Part shown: in pieces, positions 10,399-13,874 of the stretch
Layout: each line of letters begins with the position of its first letter
Numbering within the stretch: position 1 is the stretch's first letter
Source: Escherichia coli
GTDB taxonomy: Bacteria > Pseudomonadota > Gammaproteobacteria > Enterobacterales > Enterobacteriaceae
Assembly (NCBI RefSeq): GCF_003334385.1
Contig: NZ_QOWN01000002.1
Direction: 5' to 3' (one strand)
DNA length: 64,000 bases
The notes under the pieces: model-generated
Told to the model about the DNA's origin: nothing
Databases searched by the model: none
What the model saw: the letters and a program-made list of their open reading frames with translations, nothing else
Made by a program: the position numbers and the translations under genes

Positions 10399-11337
10399 CT
10401 AACCAACTTCTATTAATTGCCTTCGTCTACACCCATTATAAGATGAATACTCTTTGGCTAATTCCACCAAAACCGATGCTGCTTTTTTAATACGATAATT
10501 TTTCGACCATACCGCGGCATATTGTGCCACAGGTAATGTTTCTTCAACCGGAATAGTAATAAATTGATTAGAACCAAAAGGTGACGTCATATCACAAGGA
10601 ATTACAGTTAAGAAATCAGCATTGAGAACAAGATTATAAATTGTCACGACTGAGTCGGTTTTAACGATGTTTTCAATACTGATGCCATTTCTTTGTAACG
10701 TAGTAAGCAGTTCGCTGTAGTACCCCATATTAGTTTGTGGCAACACCCACTGTTCGTTCTTCAACGACTCCAGCGTGGTGGTGCCGGTGCATGTTCGGGA
10801 CTTACTGGCTACCAGCACAAACTCGGACTCGAACAGCGGCTCAACATGTAAATCCTGAAGCTTCATTTCTGCACTTAACGTACCAATCGCAAAATCCAGT
10901 CGACCGTCGCGGATTGCCGGTAAGAACGAAGACAGTTGCGCTTCATACATAGAAACCTGCGCTTTCGGGAACACCTCTTTGAACTTGTTGATCATCCCTG
11001 ACATAAAAGTAAAACCAATCAATGAAGGAAAACCAAATGAGACTTCCACCACCGCCTCAGAAGACATACCGCTTATCTCATTAACCATATTTTTCATTTC
11101 ACGGGTAATGGATTCGGAACGGGAGAGTAACAATTGACCGGCAGGTGTTAATGTTACACCGGTATTTTTCCGCACCACTAATTCCACACCAAAATAATCT
11201 TCAATATCGTTAATGATTTTACTGACGGCCGGTTGAGTTAACCCTAATTCTTTTGCAGCCGAGCCGATAGAACCACTTCTAATGACTTCCTGAAAGACTA
11301 CCAGGTGCTGCGTTTTCGGAAGAAGAATAGTGCTCAT
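10399..11337 (-). CDS. tdcA: LysR-type transcriptional activator TdcA, 312 aa
   Basis: Track ORF; N-terminal LysR helix-turn-helix and first gene of the tdc operon. Confidence 0.92.
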   Translation of the reverse strand: MSTILLPKTQHLVVFQEVIRSGSIGSAAKELGLTQPAVSKIINDIEDYFGVELVVRKNTGVTLTPAGQLLLSRSESITREMKNMVNEISGMSSEAVVEVSFGFPSLIGFTFMSGMINKFKEVFPKAQVSMYEAQLSSFLPAIRDGRLDFAIGTLSAEMKLQDLHVEPLFESEFVLVASKSRTCTGTTTLESLKNEQWVLPQTNMGYYSELLTTLQRNGISIENIVKTDSVVTIYNLVLNADFLTVIPCDMTSPFGSNQFITIPVEETLPVAQYAAVWSKNYRIKKAASVLVELAKEYSSYNGCRRRQLIEVG

Positions 11338-11400
11338 AACGACCTACGTTAATTACCTCATTGACGGCATGAAGTGTATCAAAATGAAATGAACAGGATA

Positions 11401-11416
11401 TGTGCGACCACTCACA
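11401..11416. promoter_or_regulatory. CRP-binding site upstream of tdcA (tdc promoter)
   Basis: tgtgcgaccactcaca matches the CRP consensus TGTGA-N6-TCACA at 9 of 10 half-site positions; lies about 65 bp upstream of the tdcA start in the tdcA/tdcR divergent region. Confidence 0.6.
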
Positions 11417-11651
11417 AATTAACTTTCAATACTTTCCAGAGTATCGTTGTTACAATTAAATACCTTTAAATATCAACAAGTTAAAGTATAAAAATCAGCA
11501 TAAACCCTGATTTTTGTCAAAAAAAATGACGGGGATAACCATATTTTATGGCGATAACATCATTCGTTATGTGGTTAATACAAAAAAGGGGCTGAGACCA
11601 TATTTCAAGCAATTACCGGATAATTACCAAGCAAAATTTGAGTTAAATTTA

Positions 11652-11870
11652 ATGAGCAAGTTCTCAAATTTTATTATAAATAAACCATTTTCAGTGATAA
11701 ATAATGCGGCATGTCACATTTTTTCACGCTATTTGTTGGAGAACAAACATTTATTTTATCAATATTTTAAAATTTCGAATACATTTATTGATCATCTCGA
11801 ACAATTGATTAACGTCAACTTTTTCTCTTCTGACAGGACGTCATTTTGTGAATGCAATCGTTTTCCATAA
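11652..11870 (+). CDS. tdcR: Small putative tdc operon activator TdcR, 72 aa
   Basis: Track ORF 11514..11870 (118 aa); the annotated TdcR as I recall it corresponds to the C-terminal 72 codons from MSKFSNFIINKPF. Start choice is uncertain. Confidence 0.6.
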   Translation: MSKFSNFIINKPFSVINNAACHIFSRYLLENKHLFYQYFKISNTFIDHLEQLINVNFFSSDRTSFCECNRFP

Positions 11871-12095
11871 ATTCTTCTCCCCTCATAGGCGACGAATAGC
11901 ATTTTGTGTTGAGGATCACAAAACGAATAATTGCTGATCGCCGCGATAAGGTCAGACAAAGACAACAAGGGAAATTTTCACAGAGCTTTTGATCGGCGTA
12001 GGCCACAGAATGTTGCTTCGTTTACTGTAACGCCGGGTAAATGAGCGTTTTTTGATAGTGCGAAAGAACCCTGCGAGGAAAATAAGCATCTATTA

Positions 12096-12665
12096 TTGTT
12101 TGTCATGATGACAAGGCAGGCATCAATGAAAGGCTTCCCAATTGCGCATATTTTTCACCCTTCAATCCCGCCAATGCACGCAGTGGTTAACAATCACAAT
12201 AGAAATATTGATTATTGGACGGTAAAAAGAAAGTTTGCAGAAATTGTCTCCACCAATGACGTTAATAAAATTTACAGTATAAGTAATGAACTGCGGAGAG
12301 TATTATCTGCAATAACTGCATTGAATTTCTATCATGGCGATGTTCCTTCTGTCATGATCCGAATCCAACCGGAAAATATGAGTCCATTCATTATAGATAT
12401 TTCTACAGGAGAACATGATGATTATATCATACAAACATTAGATGTAGGCACTTTTGCACCTTTTGGTGAACAATGTACTTGCTCAGCCGTCAATAAAAAA
12501 GAGCTGGAATGTATTAAGGAGACGATTTCTAAGTATTGTGCAAAATTCACCCGAAAAGAAGCCATCTTAACCCCCCTTGTGCACTTTAATAAAACCAGCA
12601 TTACTTCAGATTGTTGGCAAATTCTCTTTTTTTCACCCGATCATTTTAATAATGATTTTTATTGA
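12096..12665 (+). CDS. yhaB: Uncharacterized protein YhaB, 189-aa ORF
   Basis: Track ORF in an AT-rich segment; no recognisable domain. Position between tdcR and yhaC matches K-12 yhaB. Confidence 0.7.
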   Translation: MFVMMTRQASMKGFPIAHIFHPSIPPMHAVVNNHNRNIDYWTVKRKFAEIVSTNDVNKIYSISNELRRVLSAITALNFYHGDVPSVMIRIQPENMSPFIIDISTGEHDDYIIQTLDVGTFAPFGEQCTCSAVNKKELECIKETISKYCAKFTRKEAILTPLVHFNKTSITSDCWQILFFSPDHFNNDFY

Positions 12666-12686
12666 TTATTTATAAAGGATAAAATA

Positions 12687-13874
12687 ATGTTCCCTGTTTC
12701 ATCAATTGGTAATGATATTAGTAGTGATTTAGTCCGTCGAAAAATGAATGACCTTCCTGAAAGCCCAACAGGAAATAACCTCGAAGCACTAGCACCAGGT
12801 ATAGAAAAACTAAAACAGACCTCTATTGAAATGGTCACTTTACTTAACACGTTACAACCTGGTGGAAAATGCATTATCACTGGTGATTTTCAAAAAGAAT
12901 TAGCGTACTTACAAAATGTAATTCTTTATAATGCCTCGTCTCTTCGTCTGGATTTTTTAGGTTATAACGCCCAAATTATTCAACGATCGGACAATACTTG
13001 TGAACTTACCATTAATGAACCGTTAAAAAACCAGGAAATATCCACAGGTAATATCAATATTAATTGCCCATTAAAAGATATTTACAATGAAATCAGGAGG
13101 TTAAACGTAATTTTTAGTTGTGGGACTGGAGATATCGTTGATCTATCCTCTCTGGACTTACGTAATGTCGATTTAGATTATTATGATTTCACAGATAAAC
13201 ATATGGCTAATACTATTTTAAATCCTTTTAAATTGAATTCAACAAATTTTACTAATGCCAACATGTTTCAGGTTAATTTTGTTAGTTCAACACAAAACGC
13301 CACAATCTCCTGGGATTATTTACTAAAAATAACGCCTGTTTTAATAAGCATTAGCGATATGTATTCTGAAGAAAAAATCAAGTTTGTCGAAAGTTGTTTA
13401 AATGAGCCTGGAGACATTACCGAAGAACAATTAAAAATTATGAGATTTGCAATTATAAAATCTATACCAAGGGCAACTCTTACAGATAAATTAGAAAATG
13501 AATTAACAAAAGAAATATATAAAAGCTCATCGAAAATCATCAATTGCTTGAACAGAATTAAATTACCAGAGATGAAAGAATTCTCATCAGAAAAAATATA
13601 TGATTACATCGATATAATCATTGAAGATTATGAAAATATCAAAGAAAATGCTTATCTGGTCGTCCCCCAAATTAATTATACTATGGATTTAAACATAGAA
13701 GACTCTAGCTCAGAAGAGTTACTTTCAGATAATACCCTCGAGAAAGACGAAAATTCTCCGGACAATGGCTTTGAGGTCGGGGAATATAACACATATGAAG
13801 CATATAACTCAGAGAAGCAATATTTTACCAGAGAGGACTATACGTATGATTACGACCTTTTAAATGCAATATAG
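12687..13874 (+). CDS. yhaC: Uncharacterized protein YhaC, 395 aa, with a pentapeptide-repeat block and an acidic Tyr/Glu/Asp-rich C-terminal tail
   Basis: Track ORF, AT-rich. Residues ~158-198 (RNVDL DYYDF TDKHM ANTIL NPFKL NSTNF TNANM FQVNF) have a hydrophobic residue at every fifth position. Confidence 0.8.
   Translation: MFPVSSIGNDISSDLVRRKMNDLPESPTGNNLEALAPGIEKLKQTSIEMVTLLNTLQPGGKCIITGDFQKELAYLQNVILYNASSLRLDFLGYNAQIIQRSDNTCELTINEPLKNQEISTGNININCPLKDIYNEIRRLNVIFSCGTGDIVDLSSLDLRNVDLDYYDFTDKHMANTILNPFKLNSTNFTNANMFQVNFVSSTQNATISWDYLLKITPVLISISDMYSEEKIKFVESCLNEPGDITEEQLKIMRFAIIKSIPRATLTDKLENELTKEIYKSSSKIINCLNRIKLPEMKEFSSEKIYDYIDIIIEDYENIKENAYLVVPQINYTMDLNIEDSSSEELLSDNTLEKDENSPDNGFEVGEYNTYEAYNSEKQYFTREDYTYDYDLLNAI

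Follow-up and report, generated by a model that had tools for sequence, protein, structure and literature searches.

The tdcR reading frame in the 64,000-nucleotide stretch of Escherichia coli DNA analyzed here (the window) is probably an Escherichia-restricted open reading frame (ORF) that lies on tdc control DNA, exists as a 72-codon unit, and is subject to at most weak selection at the protein level. The sole unit that persists throughout the genus consists of the last 72 codons, from the ATG at 11652 to the TAA ending at 11870, and a TdcR polypeptide, if made, would start at MSKFSNF. The 46 upstream codons are predicted to be noncoding and to belong to the distal control region of tdcABCDEFG, including a GATAAC-dyad-GATAAC block about 175 bp ahead of the predicted tdc start. 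Their lack of stops is limited to E. coli and its nearest clade and is compatible with chance. The 72-codon frame rests on the same ~590-bp module, flanked by two CRP-type palindromes. The peptide appears to be dispensable in a large part of E. coli and, we infer, matters little.

The maximal ORF occupies positions 11514..11870 of the plus strand and runs for 118 codons from a TTG at 11514 to a TAA at 11868-11870; the open frame begins at 11511, directly after an in-frame TGA at 11508-11510. A first-pass annotation of this DNA had described an ORF of 118 codons with 46 of them ahead of the MSKFSNF start, and these coordinates and this offset were confirmed, but its statement that the long ORF starts at an ATG was wrong: codon 1 is the TTG, and the first ATG is codon 5 (11526..11528). 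Translation from the TTG would give 118 amino acids (aa), from the first ATG, which is the start in older annotation, 114 aa (MTGITIFYG...), from an in-frame GTG at 11571..11573, 99 aa, and from the ATG of the tdcR gene as currently annotated (11652..11870, plus strand), 72 aa (MSKFSNF...CECNRFP). The “extension” at 11514..11651 comprises exactly the 46 codons 5' of ATG 11652. The ORF is AT rich, as had been noted (GC content of 0.297 and GC3 of 0.336 versus a GC content of 0.507 for the window), and the accompanying claim of poor codon usage was weakly borne out, with rare codons accounting for 8.5% of the ORF versus 7.4% of tdcA. In first-order Markov simulations of the 563-nucleotide (nt) region, with any of the six frames counted, open runs of at least 119 codons arose with P = 0.014 and runs of at least 73 codons with P = 0.35; the 118-codon frame is therefore moderately unusual by its length, whereas the 72-codon frame alone is not. 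ORF length was rejected as evidence for a gene, as a 73-codon run arises in 35% of simulations.

The gene order at this locus is that of E. coli, tdcA-tdcR-yhaB-yhaC, and the region was present in 5,393 of 5,426 complete E. coli genomes. tdcR is divergent from, and upstream of, tdcA, which encodes a LysR-type regulator (10399..11337, minus strand) and was our reference for neutral and selected rates; the layout is the same in RefSeq genomes and in strain K-12. The 72-aa product that had been given as the annotated one matches the tdcR coding sequence in RefSeq/PGAP and in K-12 (NC_000913.3; b3119, NP_417589.4). The 72-aa translation also matched the TdcR family (NF008507/PRK11424) end to end, at the same divergent site as in K-12 and with no structural difference. 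Residues 1 to 72 aligned to positions 1 to 72 of NCBIfam model NF008507, which is 72 positions long, with a score of 170.5 bits (cutoff, 100), and the model matched only residues 47 to 118 of the 118-aa translation, so that the 118-codon frame lies outside the family model. Proteins of 114 aa were abundant in older GenBank records, in clusters of 838 and 2,338 members. The suspected ambiguity of the tdcR start is thus real, as 114-aa and 72-aa proteins are both public and the K-12 protein record, NP_417589.4, is in its fourth version; it is also historical, already known, and curated.

The region 5' of tdcA was compared to those of E. albertii, Salmonella, Citrobacter, Klebsiella aerogenes, Raoultella, and Pseudescherichia, and homologous DNA was found in all six outgroup genera. 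About 590 bp ahead of tdcA aligned with E. coli in the outgroups, whatever gene adjoins beyond, with 62 to 68% identity to E. coli in Salmonella and Citrobacter. The ORF was absent or broken in the outgroups that carry the tdc module (Salmonella, Citrobacter, Klebsiella, Raoultella, and Pseudescherichia). Consensus CRP and IHF elements and footprints were found at fixed spacing 5' of tdcA. The CRP site of the tdc promoter, the palindrome TGTGCGACCACTCACA at 11401..11416, was invariant in Escherichia, Citrobacter, and Salmonella and differed at 1 to 4 positions in K. aerogenes, Raoultella, and Pseudescherichia. This site is said to be centered at -43.5 (work by Wu, Tyson, Busby, and Datta in 1992), which presumably places the tdc transcription start (+1) near 11365. 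A second element, TATCAACAAGTTA (WATCAANNNNTTR) at 11471..11483, has an ATCAA core that is conserved across genera, and it is a putative IHF site by its match to the consensus and, reportedly, by the work of Wu and Datta in 1992.

Further conserved blocks were distributed along the ORF itself. Within the 46 upstream codons and their 5' edge, these were CTGATTTT.ATCAA at 11506-11522, GGGATAAC-CATATTTTATGG-CGATAAC at 11532..11558, whose conservation extends from E. coli as far as Klebsiella and Raoultella, TTTCAAGCAAT at about 11604, and TTAAATTTAA at 11643-11652, which reaches the MSK start codon at 11652. Within the 72-codon core, GTCACATTTTT was found at 11712-11722 and TTTTGTGA..AATCG at 11845-11861. 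The block at 11532-11558 has direct GATAAC repeats on both sides of a CCATA/TATGG dyad and would span about -167 to -193 relative to the predicted tdc +1; we put it forward as a candidate LysR-type (TdcA) site. The other conserved blocks may likewise be protein-binding sites. Just 3' of the tdcR stop, at the far edge of the ~590-bp module, a second CRP-like palindrome (TTTGTGTTGAGGATCACAAA, 11903..11922) was recognizable in all seven genera compared, and we know of no role that has been assigned to it. As in other catabolic-operon control regions with CRP, IHF, and LysR-type sites, the tdc region combines a CRP palindrome (about -43 relative to the predicted start), an IHF-consensus element (about -110), and a dyad-containing block (about -175), each marked by conservation, but the tdc module is unusually long, extending to about -550, where it ends in the second CRP-like palindrome. 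Based on these alignments, the 46 upstream codons are interpreted as a putative distal part of the control region that serves the divergent tdcABCDEFG promoter, one that by coincidence lacks stops in E. coli. Their nucleotide conservation should not be read as coding conservation, because the footprints are common to genera without the ORF.

In the core, the most conserved TdcR residues (HIF, KHLFYQ, and SFCECNR) coincide with DNA blocks that are conserved in Salmonella and Citrobacter, both of which have stops in the 72-codon frame, including a common TAA at core codon 13, and Salmonella lacks an ATG at the tdcR start. The common TAA, seen in Salmonella and Citrobacter only, the more distant outgroups aligning too poorly at this point, could be ancestral or could reflect a single loss. 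Horizontal acquisition of tdcR together with yhaBC was rejected, as tdcR was present where yhaBC was missing, and is also countered by the homology to tdc upstream DNA of other genera.

Within Escherichia, 23 further loci (E. coli lineages, clade-I-like strains, E. ruysiae, E. whittamii, Escherichia sp. E4930, and the divergent assembly L011) were aligned with window positions 11338-11937; the overall sample comprised 18 distinct Escherichia alleles and one genome per outgroup genus. Each of the 15 E. coli sequences and the 3 from clade I had an open upstream frame with its ATG. TTG 11514, ATG 11526, and GTG 11571 occurred together only in E. coli and loci L012 and L013, and the clade-I strain at locus L006 kept ATG 11526 alone among the upstream starts, with GTG 11571 changed to AGG. 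The upstream ATG was absent from loci L007, L008, L009, L010, and L011, where one-base indels shift the frame and leave 27 to 31 open codons ahead of the MSK start with at most one TTG among them, and E. albertii had two stops in the upstream frame. Through lost starts, frame-shifting indels, and stops, the upstream frame was broken in E. ruysiae, E. whittamii, E4930, L011, and E. albertii, and among the orthologs a start and frame for the 114- or 118-aa form were conserved in E. coli and clade-I-like strains only. Even there, the fact that these 46 codons are open has no statistical weight and is compatible with chance, because only 0.88 nonsense events were expected among E. coli and clade I and none was seen [P(0) = 0.39].

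The 72-codon core was more durable. L011 and E. albertii have lost ATG 11652 (to ATT and ATA, respectively), and every other Escherichia sampled retains it. The 216-nt core was without an indel in every Escherichia sequence sampled, and the stop position (TAA or TGA) was kept except in clade-I strains, whose product has six additional residues. Both the 72-codon frame and the position of its stop were still in place in E. albertii, at a tdcA dS of 0.47. The lack of core indels was rejected as a sign of coding, as Salmonella and Citrobacter, without the ORF, are nearly indel-free there too. When conservation of both candidate starts was checked in this way, the upstream starts proved to be limited to E. 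coli and clade-I-like strains and ATG 11652 to be kept nearly throughout. The alignments favor the 72-aa start at ATG 11652 over the upstream starts, because the upstream starts and frame are destroyed in more distant Escherichia and ATG 11652 is retained.

Substitution patterns in the core did not resemble those of a protein-coding gene. Variable columns were spread evenly over codon positions 1, 2, and 3 (22/23/23 across the 72-codon core and 29/28/31 with E. albertii added), as were variable sites in the 46 upstream codons (5/5/6). All rates given here are Nei-Gojobori approximations. The pooled dN/dS of the tdcR core was 0.70 to 0.78, compared to 0.33 to 0.82 for out-of-frame controls (two shifted frames), and pairwise values ranged from 0.39 to 1.0 with bootstrap intervals that mostly included 1; the comparison of E. 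albertii to E. whittamii (dN/dS of 0.39; confidence interval, 0.19 to 0.82) was significantly below 1. In the same genomes, tdcA had a dN/dS of 0.01 to 0.035 and a dS of 0.33 to 0.47. Purifying selection on the tdcR core, sought as an excess of third-position or synonymous changes and as a dN/dS below that of the controls, was not detected. Core divergence from the window was ~40 to 75% of the tdcA synonymous rate in both site classes for L007 and L008; in clade I (L006), and at synonymous sites in E. albertii, it was equal to or above this rate. This pattern is what patchy constraint at the DNA level would give.

A borderline deficit of nonsense substitutions was the only coding-type signal. 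One nonsense event was seen in the core, compared to 5.1 expected under a relocation null in which patterns were moved among columns (P = 0.02) and 3.5 expected under a base-redraw null in which derived bases were redrawn in place (P = 0.07). That event, a C-to-A change at 11725..11725 (plus strand) that converts Ser25 (TCA) to TAA, is carried by 558 of the 5,426 complete E. coli genomes; PGAP labels this allele a pseudogene. Weak selection for an open frame would fit the shortage of nonsense changes, the persistence of the frame, and the one pair with low dN/dS.

Searches for relatives of TdcR beyond the genus were also negative. A profile HMM search of 1.84 billion representatives returned TdcR fragments alone and no homologs outside Escherichia. 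No Pfam domain was found in TdcR, the sole match being to BESS (E = 0.038), no relative was found in PHROGs, and a profile search of the PDB gave none below an E value of 0.8. An AlphaFold2 model built from an 11-sequence alignment had a pLDDT of 55 and consisted essentially of one long helix. Across Pfam, the PDB, and the AlphaFold model, neither a DNA-binding domain nor a corresponding fold, such as helix-turn-helix, was found in TdcR. The doubt raised in the first-pass annotation over tdcR as a normal translated gene is thus backed by the flat codon positions, the control-like dN/dS, the common nonsense allele, and the lack of homologs.

In these respects tdcR resembles orphan ORFs and candidate de novo ORFs. 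Like them, it has syntenic noncoding DNA in outgroups and no homologs elsewhere, high dN/dS, low structure confidence, and presence and intactness that vary within the species; unlike most such candidates, it bears a functional name that is decades old. In a tentative scenario, tdcR, which has been listed as an E. coli transcription factor for 35 years, would not be a conventional gene: the ORF would have opened within Escherichia on the ~590-bp module that goes with tdc in all Enterobacteriaceae, its seemingly conserved residues would be DNA footprints, and the activator phenotype would have come about through removal or titration of cis-acting DNA and not through a protein. As an alternative, tdcR may be a very young de novo peptide of marginal function.

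The data also bear on whether any protein is made. Rather than an ORF under weak selection, the locus could be a DNA-only tdc control or silencing module, and the reported effect of multicopy tdcR clones in trans would come from a titrated silencer (H-NS, for example, as a conjecture) or from an RNA. We consider this rather unlikely, but several observations are in its favor. One list of H-NS-associated “promoter islands” includes the tdcA/tdcR spacer together with most of the ORF, and the region also appears among H-NS-marked RNA polymerase binding regions identified by SELEX, with a predicted tdcR promoter (TTTAAA-16-TATAAA). The 590-bp architecture is conserved across genera without the ORF, and a coding signature was not detected. 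In the accessible part of the INRI-seq data, the only in vitro initiation signal for tdcR comes from an ATT that is out of frame and located at +97 of the gene, and this ATT had no in vivo Ribo-RET signal. Recurrent adaptive IS5 insertions have been reported at the tdc upstream region in the mouse gut, and by our own mapping they separate the upstream module from the CRP-promoter core. Against a purely noncoding locus stand the deficit of nonsense substitutions, the conserved stop position, and a frame kept as far as E. albertii, all of which would be unexpected for noncoding DNA. An RNA as the active product was not supported by the Rfam search, in which only subthreshold chance matches, and no family or structured RNA, were found.

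The opposite reading is the classical one, a genuine 72-aa trans-acting activator of tdc that evolves rapidly because it is small and lineage specific and whose frame is kept by selection. tdcR is said to encode a trans-acting positive factor (Schweizer and Datta in 1989 and Hagewood et al. in 1994, reportedly), and such a role would require a diffusible product. The curated equivalog model and the annotation as an activator, the primary tdcR literature cited by later papers, the deficit of nonsense substitutions, and the retention of frame and stop position across the genus, including E. albertii, all speak for it. A tdcR transcript has moreover been measured in one study by quantitative PCR (qPCR), with reported induction of the mRNA when T84 cells were infected with a colibactin-producing strain. 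We nevertheless regard the classical reading as unlikely. The core shows no codon-position periodicity and a dN/dS indistinguishable from that of out-of-frame controls, and the product is without a DNA-binding domain or confident fold. A premature stop is present in ~10% of complete genomes, the start codon has been lost in two lineages (L011 and E. albertii), and the conserved residues lie on DNA blocks whose conservation is just as strong in genomes with a broken ORF. In addition, other genera regulate the tdc operon without any such ORF.

The start of translation was further examined by computing anti-Shine-Dalgarno (anti-SD) duplex energies and minimum free energies (MFE) of the initiation regions. 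ATG 11652 had the least structured initiation region among the candidates (MFE, -2.3 kcal/mol) and a weak GAG only (anti-SD duplex, -2.2 kcal/mol). By these measures, ribosome-binding features were lacking at both upstream starts: ATG 11526 had no Shine-Dalgarno sequence (anti-SD, +0.6 kcal/mol; MFE, -8.7 kcal/mol), and TTG 11514 gave similar values (anti-SD, +0.6 kcal/mol; MFE, -9.0 kcal/mol). The -10 element of the SELEX-predicted promoter was mapped here to 11487-11492, which would place all candidate starts on the mRNA. The supplements of TRAINSPOTTER and Cappable-seq had no entry for tdcR, and no in vivo initiation-site, N-terminal, or transcription start site data for tdcR were found in the accessible literature. 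A real species-specific N-terminal extension in E. coli, starting at ATG 11526 (114 aa) or TTG 11514 (118 aa), would agree with the open frame and ATG of the E. coli and clade-I sequences, with the thousands of deposited proteins that use it, and with a predicted promoter that would put both upstream starts on the mRNA, but it is very improbable given a start and frame that are not conserved past E. coli and clade I, an openness compatible with chance, variable sites spread evenly over the codon positions, an initiation region that is more structured and has no Shine-Dalgarno sequence, footprints common to ORF-less genera that explain the conservation of the segment, and the shift of the start to 72 aa by curators.

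The older records resemble N-terminal misannotation under a longest-ORF rule, in that they took the first ATG (114 aa) and comparison supports the downstream start. Unlike in such cases, the tdcR “extension” is conserved as DNA, which could mislead a test based on nucleotide conservation. The comparative data agree with the current 72-aa call, and the start question is a matter of curated annotation. The comparative picture adds testable doubt about a textbook regulator. TdcR is counted as the sole member of its own transcription factor family in compilations of the E. coli regulatory network, yet selection on the protein was not detected, homologs are lacking, and about one in ten complete genomes has a truncated form. 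If TdcR is not a functional protein, regulatory-network models contain a spurious node, and the tdc upstream region, which is subject to repeated adaptive mutation in the mouse gut, would best be studied as one large cis-acting module with a second conserved CRP-type site.

The window allele was 99.5% identical to that of K-12 over 563 nt of DNA. It carries a private Phe at tdcR codon 45 (TTT), where other alleles encode Cys, Gly, or Asp.

The near-perfect CRP-type palindrome TTTGTGTTGAGGATCACAAA (11903-11922) lies just beyond the tdcR stop codon and forms the outer boundary of the conserved ~590-bp module upstream of tdcA; relative to the predicted tdc start near 11365, it is located approximately 547 bp upstream. 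This palindrome was discernible in Escherichia, Salmonella, Citrobacter, Klebsiella, Raoultella, and Pseudescherichia, and the gene beyond it varied. To our knowledge, no role has been assigned to it.

Published adaptive mutations from mouse-gut evolution include an IS5 insertion (NC_000913.2 position 3265168) and an A-to-C substitution (position 3265132). Window positions for both were obtained by our own coordinate conversion, with an uncertainty of 1 to 2 nt. By this conversion, the IS5 insertion falls at ~11417-11419 (±1 to 2 nt), in the TTAA directly distal to the tdc CRP site (11401-11416), and the substitution falls at ~11381-11383 (±1 to 2 nt), in the T-run just 5′ of the TG of the extended −10 element TGATACACT (11381..11373, minus strand). 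At its converted position, IS5 would cut the core promoter off from the upstream module in its entirety, tdcR included. Within the tdcR core, and directed at tdcA, is a strong sigma-70-like match, TTATCA-16-TATAAT (10/12; 11700..11673, minus strand); it is consistent with the description of this region as a "promoter island." Promoter-like matches in the region were no more numerous than expected from shuffled sequence.

In the 72-codon form of tdcR (11652..11870, plus strand), a fixed allele at window position 11725, in which Ser25 (TCA) becomes TAA, was carried by 558 of the 5,426 complete E. coli genomes, with the compared loci L003 and L023 among the carriers. The two Ser25-stop carriers examined closely, TUM11352 and FDAARGOS_1266, were from human hosts, and both also lacked yhaB-yhaC. 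Codon 45 (11784-11786) was hypervariable: the window has TTT (Phe) and K-12 has TGT (Cys), with Gly (GGT), Asp (GAT), or Ser (AGT) found elsewhere; the Phe allele was found in none of the other sampled sequences.

The 72-amino-acid TdcR called by PGAP in L011, a divergent Escherichia assembly, starts with ATT (1501-1503). The equivalent codon in E. albertii (L027, about position 2186) is ATA, and the sole ATG-initiated version there is an 87-amino-acid ORF that begins at a different upstream ATG. By INRI-seq, reproducible in vitro initiation (5/5 replicates) is reported at an ATT 97 nt into tdcR (K-12 3267476/7; window ~11749-11751), and no in vivo (Ribo-RET) signal was seen there. This ATT is in the +1 frame relative to tdcR, the frame of a 34-amino-acid ORF (11704..11808).

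The AT-rich yhaB-yhaC pair (12096-13874; GC, 0.27 to 0.37) was missing in E. ruysiae, Escherichia sp. E4930, and the divergent Escherichia assembly, and in some E. coli genomes it was reduced to short pseudogene fragments (loci compared, L003, L008, L010, L011, and L021 to L023). Because tdcR adjoins rnpB/garK where the pair is absent or fragmentary, yhaBC looks like an insertion or deletion independent of tdcR.

The E. coli tdcA-tdcR region was also present, at 99.5% identity, on a contig binned within an "uncultured Bacteroides sp." MAG (L005; CAUHML010000178.1); the contig is almost certainly a binning contaminant.
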